From NCBI GenBank assembly GCA_041747555.1, contig JBGTEY010000010.1:2958-66957 (forward strand): 64,000 nt of DNA, read 5' to 3'. The notes beneath the pieces were generated by a model. That model did not search any database. It saw nothing but the letters and a program-made list of their open reading frames with translations, and had not been told where the DNA came from. Shown one piece after another: positions 2,829 through 24,758 of this stretch. The position numbers and the translations under genes are program-made. The stretch's first letter is position 1. Each line of letters begins with the position of its first letter. The stretch comes from Patescibacteria group bacterium (GTDB lineage: Bacteria > Patescibacteriota > Microgenomatia > UBA1400 > PJMF01).

Positions 2829-3851
2829 ATGACAATCAAATCACTAATTCTAAAAATTGCAGACAAGAAAAAAAAGATGCAAACCTCAGATATCCAGAGG
2901 AAAACTAACGAATATACGAGACAGTATATCGTGCAAAACTTAAAGGAGCTCACGAACAGTGGGCAATTGGTCAGGTTTGGAGCGGGTGCAGGAACGTTTT
3001 ATACACTGCCAGAAAATGTAATGTCTCTGAATAATAAATTAAAAAAAAGACTAAAGAACAAAAACCTAAAGGAGCACGAAATATACTTTCATTTTGAACA
3101 GAAACTTCATTTGAAGGAAACACTTGACGAAAACGTATATAGTATTTTTACTTATGCATTCTCAGAAATGTTAAATAATGCAATTGAGCACTCCGAATCA
3201 GAGAATATCGAAGTGAGTTATTTTGATAGTAAAAAAAATATATCTTTTGAGATTAGAGACTTCGGCATTGGTGCATTCAAAAATGTACAGCATAAGCATA
3301 AGTTGAAATCAGAGCTAGAGGCCATTCAAGATATACTTAAAGGTAAGACAACCACGAATCCCAAAGCCCATTCTGGTCAAGGAATTTTCTTTACTTCAAA
3401 AATTGCTGATTTATTTATTCTCGAGAGTTATGGGTATCGGTTGAGAATCGATAATGGAATCCCAGATACCTTTATCGAGAAGGTATCACCAAGTGCTAGA
3501 GGCACTAAAGTAAATTTTACTATCAGCGCAAATTCTGAAAAGCATTTAAGTGATGTTTTTTCAGCCTATCAGACAGATCCCGATGGGTATGACTTCGATA
3601 AAACCAGAATTCTAGTTAAGCTATACACATTAGGAACTGTGTATGTGTCTCGGTCTCAGGCAAGGAGAATACTAGCTAGTTTGGAAAAATATAAACATAT
3701 TGTTCTTGATTTTCAAAATGTACCAACGATAGGACAAGCGTTTGCCGACGAGATTTTCAGAGTCTTTCAAACCAGACACCCCGATATAGTTATTGAGCCC
3801 GTTAATATGGTAGAAACAGTGGAATTCATGGTTAAGCGAGTTGATAGGTAG
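2829..3851 (+). CDS. Putative one-polypeptide regulator: N-terminal winged-helix-like segment + GHKL (RsbW/SpoIIAB-like) ATP-binding domain + C-terminal STAS-like (DUF4325) domain
   Basis: N-box EMLNNAIEH, G1 box IRDFGIGA and G2-like GQGIFFTSKIAD. C-terminal SRSQARRILASLEKYKHIVLDFQNVPTIGQAFADEIFRVF resembles the DUF4325 STAS-like domain. Confidence 0.5.
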   Translation: MTIKSLILKIADKKKKMQTSDIQRKTNEYTRQYIVQNLKELTNSGQLVRFGAGAGTFYTLPENVMSLNNKLKKRLKNKNLKEHEIYFHFEQKLHLKETLDENVYSIFTYAFSEMLNNAIEHSESENIEVSYFDSKKNISFEIRDFGIGAFKNVQHKHKLKSELEAIQDILKGKTTTNPKAHSGQGIFFTSKIADLFILESYGYRLRIDNGIPDTFIEKVSPSARGTKVNFTISANSEKHLSDVFSAYQTDPDGYDFDKTRILVKLYTLGTVYVSRSQARRILASLEKYKHIVLDFQNVPTIGQAFADEIFRVFQTRHPDIVIEPVNMVETVEFMVKRVDR

Positions 3852-3925: not shown

Positions 3926-4345
3926 ATGAAATTCCTCAACGCAGACCAAGAACTCGTAGAGTACGACGGCTCTCCCATAACCTGGAGAGTTTCAGCATAT
4001 GCACTTATTGAAAAAGATGGCGAAATTTTCATCATAAAAAATAAAACAGAAAAATTGTACGACATCGTGGGTGGTGGCGTTGAAATTGGCGAAACCATTG
4101 ACGAAGCCCTGCAGAGAGAATGTTTAGAAGAAGGTGGCATCACTATCCAGACTGGCAAGTTGCTGCACGCCCATGTTGATTGGTTTTATCACAAGAGCGG
4201 GACGTTTTTTCAGACGTGTCAGCTATTTTATAGAGCGACCATACAAGAATACTTAGATGCACCCACTGATGATGCTATGGAATGGCGGGGATTTGTTCCC
4301 GTGTCTGAGATTGGCAAAACATATCGATTGCCACCAATTGTATAA
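3926..4345 (+). CDS. NUDIX hydrolase
   Basis: Nudix box GGGVEIGETIDEALQRECLEEGG. Confidence 0.7.
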   Translation: MKFLNADQELVEYDGSPITWRVSAYALIEKDGEIFIIKNKTEKLYDIVGGGVEIGETIDEALQRECLEEGGITIQTGKLLHAHVDWFYHKSGTFFQTCQLFYRATIQEYLDAPTDDAMEWRGFVPVSEIGKTYRLPPIV

Positions 4346-4377
4346 CAAGTCATTGCAGAAAATACATAGGAGAAATC

Positions 4378-4983
4378 ATGCCAAAAGCACCAAAAAACCC
4401 AAGTAAGCCAATCGAGCGCGCAGAAATGAGGCAGACGCTCACCGCAGAAGAATGTCAGATGATCCTCAAAAAACTCCAGAATCGTTTTGATGCAAACATG
4501 CAGCGACACAAGGGCATGACGTGGTCCAGCGTTCATGAAAAACTTAAAAAACACCCCAAGAAATTACTCACACTCGAGGCAATGGAACGCTCAGGCGGTG
4601 AACCTGATGTGGTGGTGCTCAAAGGTGAATCTGACAAAGTAATTTTCATAGACTGCTCCCCAGAAAGCCCAAAAGGCCGCAGGAGCACCTGCTTTGATCC
4701 AGAATCACTCAAATCCAGAAAAGAACACAAGCCAAACGCCAGCGCGGTTGGCATGGCGAAAGCTATGGGTATTGAAATCCTCACAGAGCAGCAGTACAGA
4801 CAACTACAAGAAGTCGGGGAGTTTGATCTCAAGACCTCTAGTTGGGTTCAGACTCCTGCTGCCATCAGAAAGCTTGGTGGAGCGCTGTTTTGTGACCGGC
4901 GGTATGATGCGGTTTTTATGTATCATAATGGCGCGGAGTCGTATTATGGATCGAGAGGGTTTCGGGGGATGGTGCGGGTTTGA
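4378..4983 (+). CDS. DUF4256 family protein
   Basis: 201 aa. The pattern ...HKGMTWSSVHEKL...ERSGGEPDVV...CSPESPKGRRSTCFD...EHKPNASAVGMA...SSWVQTP..IRKLGGALFCDRRY...YHNGAESYY is characteristic of DUF4256. Confidence 0.6.
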   Translation: MPKAPKNPSKPIERAEMRQTLTAEECQMILKKLQNRFDANMQRHKGMTWSSVHEKLKKHPKKLLTLEAMERSGGEPDVVVLKGESDKVIFIDCSPESPKGRRSTCFDPESLKSRKEHKPNASAVGMAKAMGIEILTEQQYRQLQEVGEFDLKTSSWVQTPAAIRKLGGALFCDRRYDAVFMYHNGAESYYGSRGFRGMVRV

Positions 4984-5038
4984 GTGAGGTAGACGCGATG
5001 CTTGTCAGTTGGGGTGACGAAAAGTAGCGCTCTAATGA

Positions 5039-5743
5039 TTACATCCTTTTGAAATCTCTAAACACATGTTTTGTTACTTTTGCAATTACGCCCCTGGGCA
5101 TTTGAGGCAATGCTGCGAGTGATTTCAATGCAAACGTTGTTGCTAAAACAACTGCAAGTGAGAGACGATTATGATGCGCGATCTGTCCTTTTTCCCTATC
5201 TTCTTCGATATCAATAAGTGAATCAAATATATTTGCAGCCTGAGCAACGGTGGTGAGCCATTTTTTAATGTTTTCAAACTCGTTTTTGTCGATATCATCT
5301 TCAATGATGCTCAGTAGAAAATCGATTGTTGAGACTGCTTCAGTGAGTGTGCTCTTGGTGAATGATGTTACGCTTTGAGCGTTTTTTACGAGCTCTGTAG
5401 TTTGAAAAAGCTGTATGGCTTTCATTCTAACCTTCTTCGATTTTTCAGGTGGAAAGGAGGCAACATAGTACTTAAGGAAAATTTGCGGGAAAGACATTTG
5501 ATCAATGCTAACTTCTGTTTCAGAAAACAATTGATCGACAAGCGTTGTCGCAACCTGATTGCGCTTTTCATTTGACGGTAGTGCATCAAGTATTTCGTCA
5601 GCTTCCTTAATAGCCATCATGGCATATTGAAGTATTTGTTCAACTTCATGACGTTCAACACTCGGATCTTTACATTCAATTAGCCTAGCAAGGTAGATTC
5701 CTGCATCTCCGTATAGCTTGGTTGGTCGCGTAATTTCGTGCAT
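5039..5743 (-). CDS. Hypothetical protein; weak resemblance to head-to-head trans-isoprenyl diphosphate synthase (squalene/phytoene synthase-like) fold
   Basis: 234 aa. Has D49-EIL-D53 and QAANIFDSLIDIEEDREKGQI (res 168-188, DxxxD at 174-178 and 178-182). Their spacing is like the two Mg-binding DxxxD motifs of CrtM/SQS/PSY (..NIxRDxxEDxxxGRxY). The protein is shorter than canonical members. Confidence 0.45.
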   Translation of the reverse strand: MHEITRPTKLYGDAGIYLARLIECKDPSVERHEVEQILQYAMMAIKEADEILDALPSNEKRNQVATTLVDQLFSETEVSIDQMSFPQIFLKYYVASFPPEKSKKVRMKAIQLFQTTELVKNAQSVTSFTKSTLTEAVSTIDFLLSIIEDDIDKNEFENIKKWLTTVAQAANIFDSLIDIEEDREKGQIAHHNRLSLAVVLATTFALKSLAALPQMPRGVIAKVTKHVFRDFKRM

Positions 5744-5808
5744 GAGGCGTATATATTGATATGTTGGCTCGATCAGTACTTTTTGCTATATAATTATACA
5801 TCAAAACC

Positions 5809-7347
5809 ATGCTAAAGCGCACAATTGAACTAGCTAGAAACACTTTGCAAGCAAAGAATGACTTCCAGGCTCTCAAAATGAGAAGGCCAGTTAATTTTTT
5901 TGAAGTCACTGCATTTGGTTCTCTCATGTCGCTGTCAAAAGACCTACCGGCACCATCAAAAATGGGGATACAACATCTGTATCTGCTTCAAGATTTTATG
6001 GAGCGCCAAAACTTTCGCACTGATGAGGCAGGTATGAGTGAGTCAATCTGGGACCAGCAATGCATTCTAGAGCTCCATGCACTACTGTCTCAGATAGCAG
6101 CTGAGTATGAGAACACACATGGTGACGATGCAGAATCTCGTTTCTCGGTATTTTTTTCAGCTCTACAAGCTTGGTACTGCAGTAATCCGATTATCGAGGA
6201 TTTTATTCATGAAAAACAAGCTCATCCAGATCCAGACCAGTCAGCCATCTTGAACAGGATATCTAACACAGACCCATCAGAAAGAGCAAGTGTTCATAAA
6301 GAGGAAGTAGCCATGCTTTGGATTTCTGCATCATTAGCCGCATTGTATGAGGGGTCGAGTACAGAAATTGAAAGTGCCACTGAATGTACGCATACACTGA
6401 CAATGCTCTATCAAGTTTCTGAAGATTTTGTTAATCTCGAGCGAGATTGGAGGGTGAATAAAAAATCGCTATTCACGTCTGGTTTTGATTCGCTTCAAGA
6501 AGCAAAGCGAGCAGGGCTGAAATTGTTCTTAAAATATTTGCAGAAATACTTTTCTGTGATAGAAAATAATTTTCTAAAGCTTGTTATTGTAGAAGTTTGG
6601 CTTGTGCGTACTATTCACGCGTATTTGGCAGCAAAGAAGTATGGCACTGTCTGGCGTCAAATTGATCGATATCAATCCGCAGATCTAAAGGAGCGGCAAA
6701 TAGGTGGAATGCATTTAGATAATTCTTTACAACTCCCGCTCAAGGGGGGATTGAAGCCACTCATTGCCCAGTCCAAACATTCAGATGTGTATCAGCACGA
6801 GGATGTGGTGATCAAGGTCCCCAAAAAGGCGCGCGAAAGTACACACACGCTTGCTGAAATAGTGGAAGTACCAGAGGGCATGCGAGTTGAGTCAACCAGT
6901 GATGTTTTGATATCAGGGAATGATGCCGAAGGAATGCAAATATCAGTACAGAAAAAAGTTGATGGTTCTACACTGAGAAACATGGGTTTAGAAGGTTTGT
7001 CAGTAGATGCACTGCAGTCACTTCTGCAGCTGAATGCAATCGAGCAGAACTTGCTGCGCGACGGCATGTTCTTTGACTCGGTTGGCAGGGGTTCTGAATC
7101 GAGTGACGGGATGCTCACTAAGGTAAAAATGCTCCTAAATTTGTATGGATACTCCTCTAATATCATGCAATCTCAGGATGGAGAACTAGTTATTATTGAT
7201 GAGGAAGTATATGACAACAAATCCCCATTATTTCGTTTCGTCATCGGGGTGGCACTGAAGCTAAATAGGCTGAAACTATCAGGACTAGCTAAAAAGCAGC
7301 CTAATTTAAAACCAAAATCCCGGCATTCAAAAGCGTCGCAAAACTAA
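5809..7347 (+). CDS. Hypothetical 512-aa protein: helical N-terminal half, C-terminal half with a protein-kinase-like motif order (speculative)
   Basis: Divergent from 5039..5743. C-terminal VVIKVPKK (beta3-Lys-like), LLRDGMFFDS (catalytic-loop-like) and LVIIDEEVYD (DFG-like Asp) occur in kinase order. No confident family assignment. Confidence 0.5.
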   Translation: MLKRTIELARNTLQAKNDFQALKMRRPVNFFEVTAFGSLMSLSKDLPAPSKMGIQHLYLLQDFMERQNFRTDEAGMSESIWDQQCILELHALLSQIAAEYENTHGDDAESRFSVFFSALQAWYCSNPIIEDFIHEKQAHPDPDQSAILNRISNTDPSERASVHKEEVAMLWISASLAALYEGSSTEIESATECTHTLTMLYQVSEDFVNLERDWRVNKKSLFTSGFDSLQEAKRAGLKLFLKYLQKYFSVIENNFLKLVIVEVWLVRTIHAYLAAKKYGTVWRQIDRYQSADLKERQIGGMHLDNSLQLPLKGGLKPLIAQSKHSDVYQHEDVVIKVPKKARESTHTLAEIVEVPEGMRVESTSDVLISGNDAEGMQISVQKKVDGSTLRNMGLEGLSVDALQSLLQLNAIEQNLLRDGMFFDSVGRGSESSDGMLTKVKMLLNLYGYSSNIMQSQDGELVIIDEEVYDNKSPLFRFVIGVALKLNRLKLSGLAKKQPNLKPKSRHSKASQN

Positions 7348-7771
7348 CCCACAGTAAATACGGCACCAAGAGATACGCCGCCCAACGCGACAGTGGATAA
7401 AATTTCTTAATCGTCAACACAATCATCACCCACATCGCGAGGATCACGACCAAAGCCAGCGCAGGTGATTTCAATCCAAAAAAGATCGGACTCCAAATAA
7501 AATTTAATGCCAACTGCGCTGCAAAATACTTGAGCGCGGTTCTATTTTTCTTCTTAGAAGTCCCTTGCTGCCAAACCAAATACAACGATACACCCATCAA
7601 AAAGTACAAAATCGTCCACGCAGGTCCAAACACCCAATTGGGTGGCGCAAAGAATGGTTTGTTGAGGGTGGCGTACCACGTGGGGATGGCGTTGATGGTG
7701 AACGGGGTGCCGAGGATGCCGGTGAGTTGGCAGAGGATTAGAGATGCGAGGAGTTTTTTTGGGTTTTGCAT
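7301..7771 (-). CDS. tspO: TspO/MBR family tryptophan-rich sensory protein
   Basis: 156 aa, 5 TM helices, conserved WYATLNKPFFAPPNWVFGPAWTILY and Trp-rich segments. Its 3' end overlaps the convergent 5809..7347 ORF by 47 bp. Confidence 0.8.
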   Translation of the reverse strand: MQNPKKLLASLILCQLTGILGTPFTINAIPTWYATLNKPFFAPPNWVFGPAWTILYFLMGVSLYLVWQQGTSKKKNRTALKYFAAQLALNFIWSPIFFGLKSPALALVVILAMWVMIVLTIKKFYPLSRWAAYLLVPYLLWVSFATLLNAGILVLN

Positions 7772-7844: not shown

Positions 7845-8351
7845 ATGACAGAAATATCAAAATCCCACGCCATAAAAACCCTCAACACCGAGTACCAACG
7901 CTGGAACTCTTTTTTATCTAAAGTAGACGACACTACTGCACTCCAGGTTCTCTACGACAACCGACGCCTCAAAGACGAGGTGGCACACCTGTGGGCATGG
8001 CAGGTGTTGTCAGTTGCGCGGTTGAAGGCGGTGATTGAGGATACTGATCCTGATTTTTCTGAAATTATTAAGGATGATTTTGTACCTGAGAATGATGAGG
8101 AATGGGATGCGTTTAATGAATTAGTTTTTGTCACCTATCACGCAAAATCATGGAATGAAATCTATCAAGATTGGCAGGAGAATTATCAGAACTTCATGTC
8201 TCTGGCAGAAGAAATTTCTGAGGAGGTGTATTTAGAGCCAGGGTTGTTTGCATGGATGGGTGGGCAGGCGTTGATTGATGTGTTGTATGGGTCGGCGGGG
8301 CATCATGGGGGGCATTGGGGGAGTGTGGAGAAGATGAAGGGGTTAAAGTAG
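7845..8351 (+). CDS. DinB/YfiT-like four-helix-bundle protein (tentative)
   Basis: 168 aa, helical, with a C-terminal His cluster GHHGGHWGS reminiscent of the DinB_2 HxxHHRGQ motif. Low-confidence assignment. It sits 28 bp upstream of the MazG-like gene. Confidence 0.3.
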   Translation: MTEISKSHAIKTLNTEYQRWNSFLSKVDDTTALQVLYDNRRLKDEVAHLWAWQVLSVARLKAVIEDTDPDFSEIIKDDFVPENDEEWDAFNELVFVTYHAKSWNEIYQDWQENYQNFMSLAEEISEEVYLEPGLFAWMGGQALIDVLYGSAGHHGGHWGSVEKMKGLK

Positions 8352-8379
8352 CCTGTTTTTGATACAATACTACTCAAGA

Positions 8380-8709
8380 ATGAAAAAAATACTCCAAAAG
8401 TTACTTGAGTTTAGGGAACAACGTGATTGGCATCAATTTAATACACCTCAAAATATAGTAAAATCGATTGTTCTTGAAGCTGCGGAGTTACTCGAGGTCT
8501 TTCAATGGAAAATTAATGAGAAAATTGATTCCGAGGAAAAAGAAAAGATAGCAGAGGAAATGGCAGATATTTTCAACTGGTTGATCCTCCTTTCCCATGA
8601 CTTAAACATTGATATTCAAAAAGAGGCTCTAAAAAAAATAAAGCAAAATGCTGAAAAGTATCCAGTCAATAAATCAAAAGGTAGTCCCAAGAAATATACA
8701 CGCTTATGA
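8380..8709 (+). CDS. MazG-like nucleotide pyrophosphohydrolase (small all-alpha NTP-PPase)
   Basis: LEFREQRDWHQFNTPQNIVKSIVLEAAELLEVFQW...EEMADIFNWLILL matches the MazG-like/YpjD-type signature. The track ORF begins at TTG 8359; ATG 8380 is preferred. The stop overlaps the next start as ATGA (8706-8709). Confidence 0.6.
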   Translation: MKKILQKLLEFREQRDWHQFNTPQNIVKSIVLEAAELLEVFQWKINEKIDSEEKEKIAEEMADIFNWLILLSHDLNIDIQKEALKKIKQNAEKYPVNKSKGSPKKYTRL

Positions 8710-10577
8710 TCGTTTACCAATCTACAAAGAAGCAGTTTTTAGTTGATGCGGCAAACGGGATTGAAGACATGATCCTTGATAAGGTTTCTGCAAACCTAGG
8801 GATGCGTGTTCAAGAAAATGGCAGTGAGTACAATTCCTGGAAAAACTCACTCGGCAACTACATGTTTCATGTGATGAATGATGAGGCAATTGCTGATGAT
8901 GTGAATGTTGCGGTTGAATACTCGATTCCTCGTACAAAAAATAGGATAGACTTTATTATTACTGGACTTGATGAAAACAACGAAGAAAAGGTAATTATTA
9001 TTGAGCTCAAGCAATGGTCTGAGGTTGGAGTAACGAACAAAGATGCAATTGTATCAACTCGGTTTCAGCATGGAGTAACTGAAACTAATCACCCCTCATA
9101 TCAAGCTTGGTCCTATTCAACATTACTTAATAATTTTAATGAAGTTGTCTATTTAGAGAATATCGATTTAATTCCGTGCGCATACCTACATAATCATCAG
9201 GATGATAATACCGTCACCAATGATATTTATAAGGAGTACTTGGTAAAAGCACCCCTTTTTTGTAAAGGTGAAAAAGAAAAGCTCCAAAAATTTATAACCA
9301 AATATGTAAAAAGTGGTGGAAGTAAGGATCTTCTCTATCGAATTGATTCCGGAAATGTAAGGCCAAGTAAAGAATTGGCTGATAGTCTTGCATCTATGAT
9401 GCTTGGAAATAAAGAATTTGTGCTCATTGATGATCAAAAGTTGGTTTACGAGACTGCTTTGGATCTTATTAGAAAAAATGAAGATACACAGAAACAGGTG
9501 TTTATTATTGAAGGTGGTCCAGGAACGGGAAAGTCAGTAGTAGCAATCAATTTGCTTGTAACTGCTATTCAAAACAAACTGAATGCGCACTACGTTACAA
9601 AAAACGCTGCGCCAAGAGCAGTTTTCGAGGCAAAGCTCACTGGGTCAATGACTAAGACAAAAATTCATAGCCTTTTCCAATCGTCGGGGGCATACATACA
9701 TGCAGAGCAAAATGAAATTGACGTTCTGATTGTGGATGAAGCTCATCGATTGAATGAGAAAGGTGGTATATTTAGCAATCTTGGTGAAAATCAAATCAAA
9801 GAACTAATTTATGCCGCCAAGACTTCTATATTTTTCATAGATGAAGATCAAAGGGTAACGTGGAAAGATATTGGTGAAAGCAGCGCAATAGAAGTGTGGG
9901 CTAGAAAATTGGGTGCAAACGTAAATCGGGCGAAATTGGAATCTCAATTTAGATGTAACGGCTCTGATGGATACCTAGCATGGCTTGATCATGTGCTTGA
10001 AATAAAGGAAACTGCAAATACCTCGCTACGAGGTATTTCATACGATTTTCGCGTTTTTGATTCGCCAACAGAAATGCGTAATGCTGTAATCTCAAAAAAT
10101 ACAAAAAATAAAGCTCGAATTCTAGCTGGTTATTGTTGGGACTGGGTCAGTAAAAGAGATAAGTCTTTGGCAGATATTGAATTTCCTGAATTTGATTTTT
10201 CCATGCAGTGGAATTTAACTGATGATGGCTATACGTATGTAATAGCTCCAAATTCAATAAATCAAGTGGGATGTATCCATACCGCACAGGGGCTCGAGCT
10301 TGAATATGTTGGTGTAATTATAGGTAAGGATTTATCGATAAGGAACTCGAGGGTGGTCACGGATCCTAGTGGAAGGGCAAAAACTGACAAATCACTCCAT
10401 GGCTACAAAAGAGATTTAAAGGCAGGTATCGAGGGTACTGAGGCAAAAGCTGATCTTTTGATAAAAAATACATATAGAACTTTGATGACGAGGGGAATGA
10501 AGGGATGTTTTATTTTTTCTGAGGATGAAGAGACGAGAGAATACTTTAGGAGTAGAATTGGTAAATTTTTTATCTGA
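8706..10577 (+). CDS. DUF2075-family ATPase/helicase-like protein with N-terminal PD-(D/E)xK-like nuclease motif
   Basis: 623 aa. N-terminal RIDFIITGLDENNEEKVIIIELKQW has the D...ExK spacing of the restriction-endonuclease fold. Walker A IIEGGPGTGKSVV and Walker B VLIVDEAHRL are present. The overall layout is that of DUF2075 proteins. Confidence 0.7.
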   Translation: MIVYQSTKKQFLVDAANGIEDMILDKVSANLGMRVQENGSEYNSWKNSLGNYMFHVMNDEAIADDVNVAVEYSIPRTKNRIDFIITGLDENNEEKVIIIELKQWSEVGVTNKDAIVSTRFQHGVTETNHPSYQAWSYSTLLNNFNEVVYLENIDLIPCAYLHNHQDDNTVTNDIYKEYLVKAPLFCKGEKEKLQKFITKYVKSGGSKDLLYRIDSGNVRPSKELADSLASMMLGNKEFVLIDDQKLVYETALDLIRKNEDTQKQVFIIEGGPGTGKSVVAINLLVTAIQNKLNAHYVTKNAAPRAVFEAKLTGSMTKTKIHSLFQSSGAYIHAEQNEIDVLIVDEAHRLNEKGGIFSNLGENQIKELIYAAKTSIFFIDEDQRVTWKDIGESSAIEVWARKLGANVNRAKLESQFRCNGSDGYLAWLDHVLEIKETANTSLRGISYDFRVFDSPTEMRNAVISKNTKNKARILAGYCWDWVSKRDKSLADIEFPEFDFSMQWNLTDDGYTYVIAPNSINQVGCIHTAQGLELEYVGVIIGKDLSIRNSRVVTDPSGRAKTDKSLHGYKRDLKAGIEGTEAKADLLIKNTYRTLMTRGMKGCFIFSEDEETREYFRSRIGKFFI

Positions 10578-11519: not shown

Positions 11520-12779
11520 TTGAAAAAAGACATACTAGTTTTCATGAACACCACAAACACCCAAACCACTGGCACGCTTTTTACATCCCTTCTTGGCGCA
11601 GAAATTTCACCAGAGCAAGAAAATGACCACTTTCTTCTCAGCCTCTACGTCCCCAATGACAGCTCTAAATTGCAGGTTAGCCAGGTTATCAAATCCCATA
11701 TTTCCCGGGCATTCAAATCTCAAGAATCAACCAAAGATTTCATGCGCGTTGCAGATGCAATTACCGAAGTGTTTGAAAAACACGTGCACGACACGCCAGA
11801 GCTTTTGGAAGGCATGGCATTCTTTACCCCCTTCCAACTGACCACTGATCGTCCAGAGGATATCCGTGAAAAAATCGTGTCTGAGATGATTTTTATCAAA
11901 CTCCACAGCGCACCACAACCAAATGCAACGATTGGCACAATATATAATCTTGACCAGCTGGCATTCATCACCCAGCGGCAATTTTATGCGCATGTGCTCC
12001 ACGTGACCAGAAATGAAGCTGATGTCTATCAATACGACACGCAAAGTTTTGAGAAAATATTCACTATTGAGAACCCTTATTTAGTAGACAAAGAAAAAGA
12101 ACATCTAGAATTTTATGGACCAAGTCAAGGAAAGCGAGTCGTACATGGTACAGGGAGCAATAAGCTTTCTAAGCGCGAAGACAAAGAAAACGAGCAATTT
12201 CTGAAGCGTGTCATCGAATCATTTGAAAAAAAAGTCCCGGTCACCGACCAGCACGAGCTCCTGTTCGTCTACTACTCAGAAAACTTTGAAGATCACATCA
12301 AGGACGCAGTAGATGCACTCGACAAAAAACGCAAAAACCTCCACTGCATCCTCATCGACAAAAATCACCCTACGGCCAGCGAGCTCAAAAAGGCAACCAC
12401 ACAAGAGCTCAAAAACCATCGCAACAAAGCAACGGACACCGTACTCAATGCACTAAAAAATAACCGCAGTACCTTTGCAGTTGGCTGGAACGACGTCACC
12501 AAAGCCAGTCGCCACGGCATGATTGAAGCACTCATTATCAAGGTTGGCGCAGAACAAGAGGGGTACCTCCTAGAAGACTACCTCTACAGCTACCCAATCA
12601 TGGGATCAAGCAAGGTGGACTCTCTGTATCGGCACTTGGTGCGAGCTACGATCCAGAGTGGGGGAGAAATATATCTCATTGATAAGGGTCTGCAGAAAAA
12701 AAATCCGTTACATGACATAGAAGTCGCTGCGCTCATACCGAGCCATGCTGATTTTCTCAATATCACAGATTCTGATTAA
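11520..12779 (+). CDS. eRF1/Pelota-like three-domain protein (bacterial release-factor-like, baeRF-type), GGQ motif absent
   Basis: VHGTGSNKLSKREDKENEQFLKRVIESF aligns with eRF1 central-domain [29 protein letters not shown] with GGQ replaced. LLFVYYSENF matches GLVLAGSADF. FAVGWNDVTKASRHGMIEALIIKVG matches eRF1 domain-3 [20 protein letters not shown]. The track ORF starts at TTG 11520; an alternative ATG is at 11544. Confidence 0.5.
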   Translation: MKKDILVFMNTTNTQTTGTLFTSLLGAEISPEQENDHFLLSLYVPNDSSKLQVSQVIKSHISRAFKSQESTKDFMRVADAITEVFEKHVHDTPELLEGMAFFTPFQLTTDRPEDIREKIVSEMIFIKLHSAPQPNATIGTIYNLDQLAFITQRQFYAHVLHVTRNEADVYQYDTQSFEKIFTIENPYLVDKEKEHLEFYGPSQGKRVVHGTGSNKLSKREDKENEQFLKRVIESFEKKVPVTDQHELLFVYYSENFEDHIKDAVDALDKKRKNLHCILIDKNHPTASELKKATTQELKNHRNKATDTVLNALKNNRSTFAVGWNDVTKASRHGMIEALIIKVGAEQEGYLLEDYLYSYPIMGSSKVDSLYRHLVRATIQSGGEIYLIDKGLQKKNPLHDIEVAALIPSHADFLNITDSD

Positions 12780-12858: not shown

Positions 12859-15381
12859 TTACAAACTCGTAATCAGTATGTAATTCAACTTAGCATTCAC
12901 GGCACCGCGATCAGTCAAAACCGTAATTCTGCCATCCTGCACATTTACAATGCCTGCGTAATAGTCAAAATTATCTTGGCTATCATCAGTAAACGTAATA
13001 TTCTCCACGCGCAAGTGGTTGAGTGAGTCGGTAAAGCTAGCGTCACCAGCCATGATTGTCACTTGATACGTGCCATTGGGAACCGCAATTTCCCAGGTAT
13101 ACCTACCACCAAGTTGCATATGAATTAGCGTATTGCGCAGGAGTGATTCGTTGGAGGTTCTTTCTCTGGTAGCTGATTCTATATTTGAATTCCAGCCGTA
13201 TGTTTGACCATTTCTGACACCATACACCTGACCGTAATCAGGTAGATAGCCACTGGGTATCGAAGCTGTTTGTGGTTGGAAATTGATTTTAATTTCATTA
13301 ATTGTTGTCGGTGGAGTGACGGGCGCAGAGGTGGGTGTAGATATGGGGCTCGGCTGGGTTCCTATCACCGGACTTGGGCGAACTCTCGCAGAGGGTTGCG
13401 GTGTGAGCGCGGGACTTGGGTTGGTTGGAGTTGATGGTGTTGACGGCGTTGGAACAGGCGCCGAAGCTGTATTCATCTCGAATGCACCTATGTTTGGATT
13501 TTGACCGCGCGTTCGACCCAGAATATCTTGGGTTGGAGCAAGATCTGGATTGGCTGCATCGATGACGGTGCTAGAGTTCGGTTCACCGTAAAAACTCACT
13601 ATGTCAGAAAAGACGTCAGAAATTGCTGCCCTGGCTATTGCTCCTGAGCGGACAGCGCGAAAGGTACTGCCGTTCCAGGTGGGTGTAATAATTGTCGATA
13701 CATCGGGTAAATCAGGATTAACAACAACGCGAGTTGCGTCCTCTGTGTATTGTGCCAAGAAGCTATTCACCACGGGGATGGGATTTCCTCCATTCCAAAA
13801 TACATTGTTAGTCAGAAGTCTGTTTGAGGTGATGCCGCTACTGTCAGCTTGCGCAAAATACGCAGGACTTCCATCTTCTGACCCCATGGTACCGGTTGGA
13901 TCAGACCAAATATTATTGGCGATAGTGACGTTGTTGTTTGGATAGTTTTGTGAAAAACTTTGTGTTTTGAGGCGATAGCCGTAGTGTCTGCTTGGCAAAT
14001 TGCCCGTAATGGTATTGTTGCGGAACATGAAATTGTTGACACCTTCAAGTTCGAAGAGCGCTTTGGTTATACCTGTGCCATTTCCGATAAATAAATTGTT
14101 TTCTACTAATCCATGATTGAGCACATAGGATAGCGTGTCTTCTGCGCCAAATTGGAGCCAAGGAATTTGGGTGCCGGTGGTGCTGTAGTTGAAGAAAATA
14201 TTCTCAGAAATCGTAATTGAGTTAGAGCCAACGATAGTATCGCAATTTGAGCCCGTTGGATCGCACGTATCTAGCCTGGAGCCAGGACTTGAGCTACTGG
14301 AATTGACCGCAAACGTGTTGCCATTGGGGTGGGGGACAACCACAGAGCCCGACTGATTAGTGAGTCCAGCTCGGTTTATTTCTGGGACCCCGAGACTACT
14401 ATCTTTTACCACAATATACCCAGCTGGTTCGGCATTTTTTGCAAAATCATTAAAGAAAATATTCTTGTTTATTTTTACGTTGAAAACACTATTCACATCA
14501 ATAAATTCTTCTGTGGTTCCATTATTCGCTGTAGAGCCTGCCTGATTATTTTTGGTGGCTTGATTGTAGAAAAGATTGCCGGTGATATTGATATCGCCGC
14601 CATTTTGAATCTTGATGTGGTCGTTGCAATAGCTGTCGTGAATGATGTTATTTTCAAAGGTGATTTGACCAGAATAATCGGTGCCGTTGGGGTAGAGCTT
14701 GGAATTTGCATCGTAGTAGACGTTGTCTGGTCCTCGTTTTGCACCAAATGGGCCACCAGGGTCACTCGAATCATTTACCTGAATAATGTATGCAGAACTA
14801 TTGCTTGGATCGCATGAGGGGATTGGTTCGATGTGTTTAAGCTCTAAATCTGCAATGCGAAGGTTGTAGGCATTATTTAATCGAAGTACGATGCCAGTAT
14901 TTTGCAGAACTGCTTTATATGGAGTAGCTGCGGTTACGGTTACGGGGTATTGAAAATGTTTATCTATAATTTGTTGTTCACCTGTGTACACACCATCGGT
15001 GAAGATAATTGCGTCACCTGCCTGACTTCCAATTCCGGGGAGGCTCAGGGCAGTTTTAAGTGATTTGCAAGGTTGGGAGCTGGTGCAGGGTGATGAATCA
15101 TTTCCATTGGGAGCAAGGTAAAAACTTCTGGTGATAACTTGAGCTGCAGGCGCGGCTTGAGATTCAGGCTCGGTCCGTGTGGAGATATTTGCGACACTGA
15201 GGCCGACTGCGCCAAGAATGATTAACACCGGTATCAGTGTTTTTGCTAAACGAGCGGCGTTACTTTGACGAGGTCTTCTGGGAGCAGTATCAGGCGACGG
15301 ATACGTTGAACTGGATTGCGCCGAAGCGAACGAATCATTGGTGTGAGGAGACGACAGTCGTTCTGATGGATTAGTCTGCAT
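12859..15381 (-). CDS. Large membrane-anchored surface protein with right-handed parallel beta-helix (pectate-lyase-like) region, Pro/Thr/Ser-rich linker and C-terminal globular domain
   Basis: 840 aa. N-terminal charged tail plus one TM (LIPVLIILGAVGLSV). Asn-rich repeats of the form NN..I.N / GN.F.N. A PT linker (PVPTPSTPSTPTNPSP...TPTSAPVTPPTT) precedes a ~190-aa C-terminal domain. Confidence 0.6.
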   Translation of the reverse strand: MQTNPSERLSSPHTNDSFASAQSSSTYPSPDTAPRRPRQSNAARLAKTLIPVLIILGAVGLSVANISTRTEPESQAAPAAQVITRSFYLAPNGNDSSPCTSSQPCKSLKTALSLPGIGSQAGDAIIFTDGVYTGEQQIIDKHFQYPVTVTAATPYKAVLQNTGIVLRLNNAYNLRIADLELKHIEPIPSCDPSNSSAYIIQVNDSSDPGGPFGAKRGPDNVYYDANSKLYPNGTDYSGQITFENNIIHDSYCNDHIKIQNGGDINITGNLFYNQATKNNQAGSTANNGTTEEFIDVNSVFNVKINKNIFFNDFAKNAEPAGYIVVKDSSLGVPEINRAGLTNQSGSVVVPHPNGNTFAVNSSSSSPGSRLDTCDPTGSNCDTIVGSNSITISENIFFNYSTTGTQIPWLQFGAEDTLSYVLNHGLVENNLFIGNGTGITKALFELEGVNNFMFRNNTITGNLPSRHYGYRLKTQSFSQNYPNNNVTIANNIWSDPTGTMGSEDGSPAYFAQADSSGITSNRLLTNNVFWNGGNPIPVVNSFLAQYTEDATRVVVNPDLPDVSTIITPTWNGSTFRAVRSGAIARAAISDVFSDIVSFYGEPNSSTVIDAANPDLAPTQDILGRTRGQNPNIGAFEMNTASAPVPTPSTPSTPTNPSPALTPQPSARVRPSPVIGTQPSPISTPTSAPVTPPTTINEIKINFQPQTASIPSGYLPDYGQVYGVRNGQTYGWNSNIESATRERTSNESLLRNTLIHMQLGGRYTWEIAVPNGTYQVTIMAGDASFTDSLNHLRVENITFTDDSQDNFDYYAGIVNVQDGRITVLTDRGAVNAKLNYILITSL

Positions 15382-17886: not shown

Positions 17887-18858
17887 TTAGGATGATTTTT
17901 CTGAAGTGTCGCCAACCAACTCATATTCTAGAGGGTCAATATCACCCAGTCCGAGTGCGAGATTGGCAATAGTGCCACTAATTTCAGCTTTCGTAAATGG
18001 ATCTAAGGCGGGGTCACTGCTTGCAACGGGGAATAGGCGAAGTTCAATACCTGGAGGGAACAAATCTTTGACTTGTTTCAAGCGGAAAAACCGAACTGCT
18101 TGTGTGGACATTACCACAGTAATTACTGCATCTTTAGTGATGAATCCGTCAGGATTTTCTTCTGATTGAAGATGTTTTTGAATATAGTCTGCAAGTGGTT
18201 GGAGCTGTGTAACAGTGTCTTTTACTGTATAGGGTCGGATAATTCTAACAAGTTCTTTCGGAACAAATGACTTTGCTGATCGAAGTACGTTAAATAAATC
18301 TTTTCCTTCTAGCTGAGTACCTACATACACTATTTTCTGGCCAGAATCTTCTAGAGCTTGACGAACTTCAGCACGCAAGGCATTCAAAGTAGAATTTAGC
18401 CAGCTAAGATACGGTTTTTCTGTAAAAGCAGAAAAGTCTCGTCCAGCAGCTACCCCAGCTCTCATAATAGAAAGTATTGCAGCTGCGTCACTTTGAATTC
18501 GATCAGAAAATCTACTCCACCATTCTGGTCCAAAGAAATTTCCTTTTCTTGGTTCGGCATATGTGCCTCCTGCTGCTGACAACACAATGGTGAGATGCTG
18601 TCTTTTTGCATCTTCCTCTGTAATATTCCATCGTTCTGGATTTCTTGCGGCAGCTTCAATTGCATATGCCTCTTTAAGACAGTTTGAAATTATTTTTTGA
18701 ATTGTTTCGTCGTCAGGTTTTTTAAAATTTGGATGAGACTCAATGCGCTTAAAAGTGCCTTTTAATAAGGCATTTATTTCTTCATGGGTCGGCAAGTCTT
18801 CAGTTTGGATACTTGGACTTGTTGGGTGAAATCTGTCTAAAGTTTCTTTTAATTGCAT
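17887..18858 (-). CDS. Hypothetical protein with possible YdcF/DUF218-like C-terminal region
   Basis: LTIVLSAAGG...VITVVMSTQAVRFFRL...LFPV resembles DUF218 motifs (IVVLGGG..., VTS..H..RA..F). Tentative. Confidence 0.35.
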   Translation of the reverse strand: MQLKETLDRFHPTSPSIQTEDLPTHEEINALLKGTFKRIESHPNFKKPDDETIQKIISNCLKEAYAIEAAARNPERWNITEEDAKRQHLTIVLSAAGGTYAEPRKGNFFGPEWWSRFSDRIQSDAAAILSIMRAGVAAGRDFSAFTEKPYLSWLNSTLNALRAEVRQALEDSGQKIVYVGTQLEGKDLFNVLRSAKSFVPKELVRIIRPYTVKDTVTQLQPLADYIQKHLQSEENPDGFITKDAVITVVMSTQAVRFFRLKQVKDLFPPGIELRLFPVASSDPALDPFTKAEISGTIANLALGLGDIDPLEYELVGDTSEKSS

Positions 18859-21998: not shown

Positions 21999-24758
21999 TT
22001 AATCGTTTATTTTTACTTCTTCAAATTGTAATTCTGCACCAATGGTTCGCTCATAGTACTCAATCATGACGGTGTGCTCACCCGCGGTCAGTTCTTGCTC
22101 CACTTCATAATACGTCGTTCCTTGATCTTTCCACTGATCAATGACGAGCTCGCCATCAACATACAGTCGAATTCCGTCATCGCCCCCGAGTGTGAATCGA
22201 TACGTTCCTGCTTCGTAAGTTTCTGTTTTAAGTGCCCTCAGTGAGAAATAATCATTGGAAACGAGCTGATGTGGTGATCCAAGGCCCCAGCTAAACGCAA
22301 TTTCGGGGTGAATATCTGCATAAATTGGTTCGCCGTTGAGGGTAATATTGTTAAAATACTCAACCAAAAAGTCACCGGAATCAACTATAACGGGCTCTTC
22401 TTCTATTGTCGGAGCAATAGTGAGCATGGCAGTAGCGCCATATTGTCGCTCGTAGTATTCCATTTTGATTACATGTGTACCAGCTTCGAGCTCCAGATCA
22501 ACGACATACGTAGTTTTGGGTTGATCTATCCATTTATCTATGACTAGTTCATCGTCAACGTATAGTCGCACGCCATCATCTGCAGAAACCATAAAGCTGT
22601 ATGTACCTGCGTCAAATTCTTGATTTTTAACCCAGCGAGCCGAGAAGTAATCCTTGGTTATGCTGGGATCTGGAGCGTCGAGTCCCCAGTCGTGTTGGAT
22701 TTCTGTTTCAAATCGTTCGAGCGCAGGCGTTCCCGTCAAACTCATGTTATTGAAGTACGTTGCAGTAAATTGATCAGTGGGAGTTGGAGGGTCTGTGGGT
22801 TCTGGTTCTTCTTCACCGGGATCAGTTTCATCAAGTGATGACCAATCGAGCGCAGCAAACGCACCGACTTGGTTCTCGTAATACTCCATGGTAATTGTGT
22901 GAACGCCATCGAGGTCTGCGTCATGCGTGTAGGTTGTTGGTCCTTGGTCAATCCACTTATCAATAACTGTTTCACCATCTATAAGTAGGCGTACACCATC
23001 ATCAGCGGTGACAGAGAAGCGATGTGATCCTGGCTCAAATGTGAACTGGCCTTGCCAGCGAGCAGAGAATCCATCGTTAGTAATTCCTGGCGCGGGTGAG
23101 CCGTATCCCCAATTGTTTTGAATTTCTGGATCAATACGGGTTACTGCTGGATCACCATTGAGTGACGTATTGTTAAAATATTCTGCTAAAAATCCAGCAT
23201 CGAGGGGAATATCTGTGGTTGGCACTTCTGGATCTTCATCGTCACCAGGAGGTGTGTCTGTGGTTTCAGACCAGCTCAATATGGCAGTCGAACCGACGTA
23301 GCGTTCATAATATTCCATTTTAATTTCATGTTCACCGCCAAGATCTCTGGTTGCGGTGTACGTTGTTGCACCTTGATCTTTCCACTGATCTATCACAAGT
23401 TCACCGTCTATATAGAGCCGGACTCCATCATCTGCAGTTACTGAAAATGTGTATGTCCCTGGGTCAAAGGAGAAATTTCCTGTCCAACGTGCGGAATAAA
23501 AGTCAGAGTTCACTGAGGCGTGAGGTGAAGCATACCCAAGTTCATAATTGATAGTATTTTCTTCTCGAGTAACGACTGGCACACCAGAGAGATCAATATT
23601 GTTGAAGTACTGAGCGGTAAAGACACTGGTAGCAGGTGGAACAGGATCGGGATCTGGTTCAGGACTTGGATCAGGGTCGGGTTCGCCGTCACCGGGATCT
23701 TCAGGAAGGGTTCCGCCGGTTACGGCAGTAATTGCCTCTGCCCATTTTTGGCCCATGGCGTCATAGCCTTCAGCCGTAGGATGATAATTGTCAGCTAAGT
23801 CTGCACTGGTCAAAACAGTGTGCATATCGACGTAATGAACCTTTTTGCCTTGGTCGCGTAAGTTCTGTACAACGCCAGGAATAGCTTGATTAAAAATCTC
23901 AACTTGTTGTTGCATGCTGGAATCTTGAATTGGAATCAGCGAAGCGACCAGAATATCAGTATCGGGCAATTCAGTAGTGATTGCTTGTATAAGGTTTGAA
24001 AGTCTGTTTGGTGCTTGAGCTAGATTGTAATTGAGGCGAATATCATTGGTTCCAGCAAGTAGCAATACTTGATCTGGCTGATGAACCTTGAGCCAAGGCA
24101 TCATGTTGGCATGAATTTCATCAATACGCCATCCGGGGTGTCCTTCATGGTCGCGATCAGTGAGTCCTGCAGGGCCATTTTGGAGTGTTCCGACTAGATT
24201 AATGTCTGGTAGAAGTGTTTTTAAGTTTGTTCGATAGCCACCAGGAACGTTATTGCCATGTGTATTTGAATCACCGAGCGGCATTATTCTTAAGCCAGTT
24301 GCAGAGTCTGGAGAAACTAGTTCCCAGCTCAACGCTGCAGTAGCACCACCACTTTTCTCATAGTATTCGAGAACAATAGTGTGTTCGCCTGAATCGAGAT
24401 CAATCATGGTTTGATTGAGTGTCGAACCTTGATCAACCCACCGATCAATCAATAGTTCACCATTCACCCAAAGCCTGACGCCATCATCAGAAAACGTAGA
24501 AAAAAGATATCTACCACTCTCTAGCTCAAAATCACCGGTCCATCGTGCAGAGAAGTTGTCATTATTGATAGAAGGATCAGGACTCCCGACTCCCCACTCA
24601 TTTTGAATGGTTGTCTCAATTCTGGTAAGGACGGGTTCACCCGTTAAAGTTGTGTTGTTGAAGTACTCAGCAGTGAAGTCATTTGCCGCGTGTACTTGAC
24701 CAGGTACAGTGAGGATTGTGACCGCCAAAAAAGATAGTACTGTATTTTTAAGTTTCAT
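21999..24758 (-). CDS. Secreted multidomain protein: five PA14 domains with an SGNH/GDSL hydrolase domain inserted between the first and second
   Basis: 919 aa with a signal peptide. Five repeats of the form YFNN..L.G.P.......I...WG.GSP.......FSARW.G.F.F..G.Y.F....DDGVRL..DGELVID.W.DQG match PA14. Between PA14-1 and PA14-2 lie LRIMPLGDSNTHG (block I), LLAGTNDI (block III) and DNYHPTAEGY (block V) of SGNH esterases. Confidence 0.75.
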   Translation of the reverse strand: MKLKNTVLSFLAVTILTVPGQVHAANDFTAEYFNNTTLTGEPVLTRIETTIQNEWGVGSPDPSINNDNFSARWTGDFELESGRYLFSTFSDDGVRLWVNGELLIDRWVDQGSTLNQTMIDLDSGEHTIVLEYYEKSGGATAALSWELVSPDSATGLRIMPLGDSNTHGNNVPGGYRTNLKTLLPDINLVGTLQNGPAGLTDRDHEGHPGWRIDEIHANMMPWLKVHQPDQVLLLAGTNDIRLNYNLAQAPNRLSNLIQAITTELPDTDILVASLIPIQDSSMQQQVEIFNQAIPGVVQNLRDQGKKVHYVDMHTVLTSADLADNYHPTAEGYDAMGQKWAEAITAVTGGTLPEDPGDGEPDPDPSPEPDPDPVPPATSVFTAQYFNNIDLSGVPVVTREENTINYELGYASPHASVNSDFYSARWTGNFSFDPGTYTFSVTADDGVRLYIDGELVIDQWKDQGATTYTATRDLGGEHEIKMEYYERYVGSTAILSWSETTDTPPGDDEDPEVPTTDIPLDAGFLAEYFNNTSLNGDPAVTRIDPEIQNNWGYGSPAPGITNDGFSARWQGQFTFEPGSHRFSVTADDGVRLLIDGETVIDKWIDQGPTTYTHDADLDGVHTITMEYYENQVGAFAALDWSSLDETDPGEEEPEPTDPPTPTDQFTATYFNNMSLTGTPALERFETEIQHDWGLDAPDPSITKDYFSARWVKNQEFDAGTYSFMVSADDGVRLYVDDELVIDKWIDQPKTTYVVDLELEAGTHVIKMEYYERQYGATAMLTIAPTIEEEPVIVDSGDFLVEYFNNITLNGEPIYADIHPEIAFSWGLGSPHQLVSNDYFSLRALKTETYEAGTYRFTLGGDDGIRLYVDGELVIDQWKDQGTTYYEVEQELTAGEHTVMIEYYERTIGAELQFEEVKIND

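Follow-up and report, generated by a model that had tools for sequence, protein, structure and literature searches.

Two orphan, predicted helical protein families with metal-site-like motifs, encoded divergently beside a TspO gene in a Patescibacteria genome, are candidate relatives of isoprenoid synthases

A divergent pair of genes, encoding proteins of 234 and 512 aa, lies next to a TspO gene in a 64,000-nt stretch of DNA from a Patescibacteria group bacterium (contig JBGTEY010000010.1 of assembly GCA_041747555.1), which we call the window. We refer to the two as the small and large genes; each product represents an orphan family with two conserved motifs that resemble metal sites. Coordinates are those of the window, residue numbers are those of its proteins, and designations such as L001 are the loci of relatives. 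A 65-bp spacer separates the small and large genes, and the 3′ ends of the large gene and the convergent TspO gene overlap by 47 bp (7301-7347), with an overlap of equal length in L001. The locus contains the following features.

5039..5743, minus strand: small gene, 234 aa, product predicted to be all-helical, orphan family (ORF with a 62% identical, syntenic ortholog, P0002)
5809..7347, plus strand: large gene, 512 aa (ORF with a syntenic ortholog)
5786..5805, no strand assigned: conserved 20-nt element CTATATAATTATACATCAAA, which holds the palindrome TATAATTATA (identical in the window and L001, where the remaining spacer differs)
7301..7771, minus strand: TspO/MBR gene (Pfam TspO_MBR, E = 7e-54)
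3926-4345, plus strand: NUDIX hydrolase gene (Pfam; equal order in L001)
4378-4983, plus strand: DUF4256 gene (Pfam; equal order in L001)

The small and large genes are real and constrained, because a syntenic orthologous pair is present in a second Microgenomates metagenome-assembled genome (MAG) and because the ratio of nonsynonymous to synonymous substitution rates (dN/dS, or ω) is about 0.1. The second MAG (L001, GCA_049289655.1) encodes 234-aa and 513-aa proteins that are 62% and 58% identical to the window pair, and the gene order NUDIX–DUF4256–small–large–TspO is common to both genomes. Between the window and L001, dN/dS for the large gene was 0.11 (0.08 for its N-terminal and 0.15 for its C-terminal domain), and dN for the small gene was 0.275 with dS saturated. 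The 58–62% identity of the pair, compared to 81–83% for the flanking TspO and DUF4256 proteins, shows that the pair evolves faster than its neighbors. An earlier note on this DNA had likened the small protein to squalene/phytoene synthases (SQS/PSY) and the C-terminus of the large protein to a protein kinase; checking the translation confirmed both ORFs, both DxxxD stretches in the small protein, and the positions of three "kinase-like" strings in the large one.

A concatenate of both window proteins was searched exhaustively with phmmer against 1.84 billion cluster representatives. For the small protein, this yielded nine distant relatives (190-270 aa, E 4e-18 to 2e-4; 17-26% identity to the query), which together with the window protein and its 62% identical ortholog make a family of 11 sequences. 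For both window proteins, only the L001 pair was retrieved by an indexed search of 5.8 billion proteins, a concatenated-profile search of the same database returned two close proteins only, and a search for related loci in GTDB genomes found no relative. The small protein had no match at threshold in Pfam, NCBIfam, or PADLOC and no sequence match in the PDB; none of the 11 family members, nor their consensus, matched a Pfam family at threshold, and the family profile found nothing among PDB sequences. The small protein is a member of a tiny orphan family, in which D49, D53, R61, E117, E135, N171, D174, D178, and D182 are invariant across all 11 sequences and G136 is nearly so.

5585..5599, minus strand: small motif 1, D49-E-I-L-D53, pattern I[KR]xxDxx[LI]D (D49 and D53 invariant, n = 11)
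5561-5563, minus strand: R61, following small motif 1 (invariant, n = 11)
5198..5233, minus strand: small motif 2, N171-IF-D174-SLI-D178-IEE-D182, pattern NxxD[ST]xxDxxxD (N171, D174, D178, and D182 invariant, n = 11)

Residues 171–182 of the small protein read NIFDSLIDIEED. Both motifs lie near the C-terminal end of a long predicted helix (secondary structure only, from a low-confidence AlphaFold2 (AF2) model), and a Lys or Arg stands three residues ahead of the first Asp in 8 of the 11 members. Among composition-preserving shuffles, two DxxxD motifs at SQS-like positions and spacing occurred in 0.9% of cases and DxxxD together with NxxDxxxDxxxD in 0.005%. The earlier note had named loss of the Asp motifs among orthologs as a ground for refutation; both motifs proved invariant in the ortholog and in the nine distant relatives. 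In one of these homologs, P0011, a TAG codon replaces a conserved Trp codon (TGG) at 7986-7988 of L004 and also in L005, which are independent assemblies; P0011 may be either a pseudogene or expressed as an N-terminally truncated product from the next Met. Recoding of stop codons in L004 was considered and rejected, as the stop is a TAG at a conserved Trp codon.

The proposed likeness to SQS/PSY proteins was examined by hhalign with nine references (CrtB of Pantoea, Paracoccus, Thermus, Streptomyces, Natrialba, and Thalassococcus; an unannotated Nonomuraea ORF; and HpnC and HpnD of Cupriavidus). Ten unrelated real families and reversed profiles served as nulls, and the P values for the two query families are uncorrected for four tests. 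The small family aligned with SQS/PSY with a score of 22.5 (P = 0.03), and motif 1 was placed onto RxxDDxxD at an equal N-terminal offset. SQS/PSY was the best of 12 families tried, but only just, as the ten unrelated families scored 8.5-20.7 and reversed profiles, over all comparisons, 10-18. Motif 1 lies at residue 46-71 in the small family versus 44-60 in the nine references, and the spacing from motif 1 to motif 2 is 121-127 residues versus 112-125. Of the likeness in motif positions and context that had been noticed, the positions, the spacing, and the alignment of motif 1 stand, and the register of motif 2 and its RD dipeptide do not. The statement that the protein is ~50 aa shorter than canonical enzymes was also correct (234 aa versus 278-344 aa in the nine references). 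Taken together, the small protein resembles the SQS/PSY family (head-to-head trans-isoprenyl diphosphate synthases; PF00494; CrtB, CrtM, HpnC/HpnD) in having a first DxxxD ~50 residues in with Lys or Arg at –3, a second N...D...D motif ~120 residues after the first, and a soluble, predicted all-helical character; it differs in having no significant match, in lacking the RD of NIxRD, and in its extra invariant E117 and E135-G136. This profile alignment is suggestive of a link between the small family and SQS/PSY.

Weak, sub-significant Pfam matches to DUF2600 and UbiA also fall on small motif 2. The DUF2600 match (12.6-12.8 bits versus a cut-off of 25, E about 0.05-0.06, 1 of 11 members) is below the gathering score and spans just 50-85 residues, whereas DUF2600 proteins are ~330 aa. 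We take DUF2600 (PF10776) to be the YtpB-type "large terpene synthases". They illustrate that a group of class-I-like terpene synthases can lack any detectable similarity to the canonical ones.

The large protein has two parts, an N-terminal domain with a family of its own and a C-terminal domain of narrow distribution. The phmmer search of the 1.84 billion representatives found 14 relatives of residues ~25-295 (among matches P0005-P0021), mostly stand-alone proteins of ~300 aa, and the N-domain family comprises 16 sequences. The whole large protein had no match at threshold in Pfam, NCBIfam, or PADLOC and no PDB sequence match; there was likewise no significant Pfam match among the 16 N-domain members, and their profile found nothing among PDB sequences. 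Q202, D206, R212, and K218 are invariant in the 16 sequences, and R25, D62, E65, R66, N68, D72, W171, T198, and N209 are nearly invariant.

5809..6693, plus strand: large N-domain, predicted helical, residues 1-295 (phmmer matches cover ~25-295 only)
5992..6027, plus strand: large motif A, D62-FM-E65-R66-Q-N68-FRT-D72-E73, pattern QDxxERQNxxxDE (D62, E65, R66, N68, and D72 invariant or nearly so, n = 16)
6412..6462, plus strand: large motif B, Q202-VS-E205-D206-FV-N209-LE-R212-D213-W-R-VN-K218, pattern QxSEDFxNxxRDxRVGK (Q202, D206, R212, and K218 invariant, N209 nearly so, n = 16)

Against seven polyprenyl-synthase references (four annotated polyprenyl synthetases of carotenoid clusters, labeled CrtE; one unannotated Nonomuraea ORF; and IspA and IspB of E. 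coli), the N-domain family gave an hhalign score of 24.3 over 67 columns (P = 0.02), whereas the ten unrelated families scored 12.4-16.0 and reversed profiles 10-12. In the aligned columns, Q202 fell on the Gln of FQ, E205-D206 on DD, N209 on the third Asp, and RVGKxT on GKxT. The Pfam polyprenyl_synt model matched the same motif B stretch in 3 of 16 members, below threshold (12.4-14.6 bits versus a cut-off of 27, E 0.02-0.09). Like the trans-polyprenyl diphosphate synthases (PF00348; IspA, IspB, CrtE), the N-domain is ~300 aa long and predicted to be all-helical, and it aligns with them in the region of their second aspartate-rich motif (SARM); it differs in being fused here to an unrelated C-domain and elsewhere to other N-terminal extensions. 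The match stands out against the controls and, at P = 0.02, is suggestive; judged by these alignments, the large N-domain is a stronger isoprenoid-synthase-like candidate than the small protein. The 512-aa protein had been called unassignable, which needs amending for its N-terminal 295 aa, an independent conserved domain that aligns to polyprenyl synthases, and holds for its C-domain, which has no family match. Paralogy of the small protein and the large N-domain was considered and rejected by BLASTP and hhalign (P = 0.22-0.43).

The N-terminal extensions of two N-domain relatives differ. Residues 1-270 of P0015 (L027 271-1947) contain a nucleotidyltransferase-like string, GGVARD…DVD (GGxxRD...DxD), and P0010 has a different, 150-residue extension. 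Assignment of the P0015 extension as a nucleotidyltransferase found no Pfam or PDB support and was dropped.

The C-domain occurs in three proteins, and P0005 (501 aa, 38% identity) is the only distant relative that also has it.

6694..7347, plus strand: large C-domain, alpha/beta, residues 296-512, lineage-specific (only in P0003, P0004, and P0005)
6814-6816, plus strand: K336 (invariant in the three C-domain sequences)
7159-7161, plus strand: N451 (invariant in the three C-domain sequences)
7198-7200, plus strand: D464 (invariant in the three C-domain sequences)

The kinase reading was built on the order of VVIKVPKK (residues 333-340), LLRDGMFFDS (415-424), and LVIIDEEVYD (460-469) in the large protein, and it did not survive. 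The C-domain does recall protein-kinase-like and APH/choline-kinase phosphotransferases in the arrangement VxK ... N-x12-D-x-E, with IIDEE resembling the IDxE of small-molecule kinases, and, in a low-confidence model, a beta-rich N-terminal part followed by helices; N451 and D464 are 13 residues apart, a spacing that is canonical in PKA and APH. Unlike these enzymes, however, it lacks a Gly-rich loop and the catalytic Asp of HxD, and its chain continues for just 48 residues beyond the DFG-like D464. A regular-expression search of the C-domain found no HxDxxxxN catalytic loop, and the residue five positions before N451 is Tyr, Phe, or Val in the three sequences. Searches of Pfam and the PDB with the C-domain, its consensus, and a three-sequence profile found no kinase family or structure at E <= 10. 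The kinase-like order (hhK...N x11-14 D) arose by chance in 19% of C-domain shuffles and is therefore, by itself, of little weight. The kinase label has no support and should not be propagated; from its distribution and sequence, the C-domain appears to be a young lineage-specific alpha/beta module that is, at best, ligand- or nucleotide-binding.

We then asked how often the two families occur together by scanning six-frame ORFs of the window and of 17 related loci with hidden Markov models (HMMs) of both families and of the C-domain. The window and L001/L002 were the only loci where small- and large-family genes adjoin. Out to ±8 kb, or as far as the contig ends on shorter contigs, no large-family gene accompanies the distant small-family genes of L004 and L010-L013, and no small-family gene accompanies the distant large-family genes of L003, L006-L009, and L024-L027. 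In L003 the C-domain is present on a 5.7-kb contig, which reaches only ~1.1 kb upstream and ~3.1 kb downstream of it and carries no small-family gene. We therefore reject a conserved gene pair, as adjacency is confined to the window and L001/L002; of the functional pair that had been envisaged, there remains adjacency with synteny in the window and L001, and it fails in the distant relatives.

In the window lineage, co-regulation of the small and large genes is plausible because they have in common the 65-bp spacer with its conserved 20-nt element. TATAATTATA is a perfect palindrome that provides a –10-like hexamer on either strand, and CTATATAATTATACATCAAA may serve as a promoter element for the divergent pair; a general promoter-consensus scan did not list it. 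The element lies immediately 5′ of the large-gene ATG with no evident Shine-Dalgarno sequence, so that the large-gene transcript may have almost no leader.

Neighboring genes offer several hints about function. First, TspO was originally named crtK and found among the crt genes of Rhodobacter (PMC10604819). On a Thalassococcus plasmid a phytoene synthase gene is followed directly by TspO. The window resembles the crtB-tspO (crtK) layout known from carotenoid clusters of purple bacteria (PMC10604819) in that TspO is directly beside a cluster with a head-to-head-synthase-like gene. It differs in that no bona fide CrtB gene precedes TspO, which instead converges on the large gene and overlaps it, and in that the window has no other crt genes. 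A TspO gene also lies 4 kb downstream of the small-family gene in L010 (10394-10900). Second, the L010 small-family gene overlaps, by ATGA, the end of a gene for a 433-aa flavoprotein, an arrangement (4369-6431) that implies translational coupling. The flavoprotein aligned over its full length with the lycopene cyclase CrtY (P = 0.005, 314 columns; P = 0.46 with CrtI) and also matched a CrtY HMM (E = 0.004) and, well short of the cut-off, the geranylgeranyl-reductase superfamily (E = 4e-6). Together with TspO, this CrtY-like neighbor is reminiscent of carotenoid clusters. Third, mutually homologous GT-C glycosyltransferases (E = 4e-25; PMT_2, ArnT-like, and GtrII matches) are encoded beside a small gene in L011 (3-1595) and beside a full-length large gene in L003 (3346-5064). 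GT-C glycosyltransferases use polyprenyl-phosphate-linked sugars. Finally, NUDIX genes are found nearby in the window, in L001, in L012 (one gene away, with Glucosamine_iso between), and in L006 (at 4 kb); any functional link of the NUDIX and DUF4256 neighbors to the pair would be hypothetical, and the literature on the DUF names held nothing useful. Together, these hints lean toward isoprenoid or lipid chemistry. The absence of an isoprenoid pathway from the window, remarked on earlier, was upheld (0 of 29 window ORFs scanned against Pfam, and nothing found in the window by SQS/PSY and polyprenyl-synthase HMMs), though most Microgenomates carry the mevalonate pathway (PMC6107057).

Two further neighbors were observed around these genes. 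Radical SAM genes lie beside two large-family members (L003 1-960 and L006 9427-10902; best NCBIfam matches MoaA-like and TatD-associated rSAM). A gene encoding HATPase_c and DUF4325 (STAS-like) domains at 2829-3851, ~1.2 kb from the small gene, has a homolog (HMM E about 1e-205) at 6296-7336 of L004, ~700 bp from the small gene there.

What are these proteins likely to do? A Mg2+/diphosphate site is typically marked by two helices that carry acidic residues at i, i+3/4, and i+7/8, accompanied by Arg or Lys. We tentatively prefer, with somewhat less than even confidence, the explanation that the genes placed next to TspO in the window lineage encode two class-I-type Mg2+/diphosphate enzymes, independent of each other and highly diverged. 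They would be separate soluble all-helical enzymes, each with two helices of invariant Asp, Glu, or Asn residues plus Arg or Lys; metal and diphosphate binding, the isoprenoid-synthase fold, and the substrate are what we infer from these residues. The small protein would most likely be a minimal, highly divergent relative of the head-to-head isoprenoid synthases of the squalene/phytoene-synthase type, in which D49 and D53 (with R61) would sit opposite N171, D174, D178, and D182 across a cleft where a prenyl diphosphate is ionized or condensed. The large N-domain would be a second domain, unrelated in sequence and most likely derived from the trans-polyprenyl-diphosphate synthases, in which QDxxERQNxxxDE would be a modified first motif and QxSEDFxN...RVGK the counterpart of a SARM; the C-terminal ~215 residues would be an add-on without a kinase catalytic base. 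Given the shared promoter region and the TspO gene beside them, both proteins probably act on one lipid or isoprenoid metabolite here, and would not form an obligate pair.

Several observations weigh against this explanation. Neither family has a statistically significant link to any isoprenoid-synthase family, and the Pfam matches of both to such families are all far below gathering thresholds; no SQS_PSY Pfam match was found for any of the 11 small-family members or for their consensus, and the unrelated CrtI family scored 20.7 against the small family, close to the 22.5 of SQS/PSY. In small motif 2 the register is N, +3, +7, +11 rather than the N, +4, +8 of SQS/PSY, the Arg before Asp is absent, and hhalign did not align the two; in addition, about 50-100 residues at the SQS/PSY C-terminus, or about 50-70 relative to the canonical fold, are absent from the small protein. 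The large N-domain has no DDx2-4D of the first aspartate-rich motif (FARM), having instead QDxxERQNxxxDE, which hhalign did not align to FARM, and its SARM reads ED..N and not DD..D. The power of hhalign at such alignment depth is low, because the positive control, SQS/PSY against polyprenyl synthases, was itself weak (score 30.2, P = 0.003, in the region of the second Asp-rich motif). AF2 models from two-sequence alignments had mean predicted local distance difference test (pLDDT) values of 40.8 for the small protein (all-helical, nine helices) and 41.4 for the large one; Foldseek with the small model gave only E > 0.5 and TM <= 0.35, and matches of the large model were noise. With both models at pLDDT ~41, the isoprenoid-synthase fold is putative. 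Lastly, the context associations are few and each is weak, with the other relatives sitting among unrelated genes.

These points leave room for other explanations. The one that fares best, although we regard it as unlikely, is that the proteins are other all-alpha Mg2+ enzymes acting on nucleotides or on di- or triphosphates (MazG/dUTPase-like NTP pyrophosphatases or a new class), with a convergent likeness to synthases. The invariant residues argue for metal/phosphate binding only, every isoprenoid-family link is sub-significant, NUDIX genes recur in the window, L001, and L012 and at 4 kb in L006, and both the nucleotidyltransferase-like string of P0015 and a possibly nucleotide-binding window C-domain would fit such chemistry. 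By contrast, neither family gave a MazG, dUTPase, HD, or nucleotide-hydrolase match, though Pfam readily finds the MazG-like gene of the window; there is no His in the invariant set; the P0015 extension lacks Pfam or PDB support; and the best profile alignments fall on isoprenoid-synthase motifs and not on the ten control families.

It is improbable that both are helical proteins without catalytic function, with conserved charges that serve binding or folding; these might be scaffolds, regulators, or partners of TspO that bind lipids or ligands. In favor of this are the lack of detectable homology to any enzyme, the faster evolution of the pair (58-62% identity versus 81-83% for TspO and DUF4256), the scattered genomic contexts of relatives, and a homolog that carries a nonsense codon in two assemblies. 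Against it, nine positions, most of them acidic, stay invariant at ~20% identity with i, i+3/4, i+7/8 spacing on two helices, which marks a metal-binding active site rather than a scaffold, and ω is about 0.1. We seriously doubt that the two proteins depend on each other as an obligate system, with the 512-aa protein as an active kinase-like enzyme that regulates or partners a minimal terpenoid synthase. Although the divergent genes have a partly conserved 65-bp spacer and synteny in two genomes, K336, N451, and D464 are invariant with a 13-residue N-to-D spacing, and the strand-then-helix order of the pLDDT 41.4 model would be compatible with a small bilobal fold, there is no kinase match at E <= 10 and no HxDxxxxN, the N451–5 position is not conserved, the chain ends 48 residues past D464, 19% of shuffles reproduce the motif order, the C-domain is known from three proteins and in L003 occurs without a small-family gene on the contig, and the families are never adjacent beyond the window and L001/L002.

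If the preferred explanation of two class-I-type enzymes holds with respect to fold, the families would add two new and very divergent branches to the isoprenoid-synthase superfamily, the small enzyme could set the lower size limit of a functional class I scaffold, and the genes would provide a clonable handle on the isoprenoid products that bacteria of the candidate phyla radiation (CPR) make from the mevalonate pathway. Both families are almost confined to these ultra-small bacteria, whose lipid and envelope metabolism is poorly understood. To our knowledge, CPR organisms are generally considered incapable of synthesizing membrane lipids themselves. A bolder proposal, which we consider a long shot, is that CPR harbor two new class-I-type prenyl-diphosphate families, namely the smallest known head-to-head-synthase-like enzyme (~235 aa, with a new NxxDxxxDxxxD metal helix) and a polyprenyl-synthase-derived domain with rewired motifs fused to a dead kinase-like or nucleotide-sensing module, and that with TspO these make or remodel an unusual isoprenoid lipid. 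If the fold fails, two clean, conserved, metal-site-like orphan enzyme families would still be worth a structure.

Elsewhere in the window, no tRNA gene was found in the 64 kb and no Rfam family reached its gathering threshold, and the large ORFs at 11520-12779, 12859-15381, 17887-18858, and 33928-35529 had no Pfam match. Directly after TspO, on the plus strand, come a DinB/DUF1706-like gene (7845-8351), a MazG-like gene (8359-8709), and a gene for a Schlafen-group-3 helicase (8706-10577) with PADLOC matches to PDC-S41, Nhi, and AbiO (E 4e-14 to 1e-12); the region 7845-10577 may be a small anti-phage defense islet. The gene at 21999-24758 encodes a 919-aa protein with five PA14 matches and a GDSL lipase/esterase domain, which is probably a large surface or secreted enzyme and would be unusual for a reduced genome.

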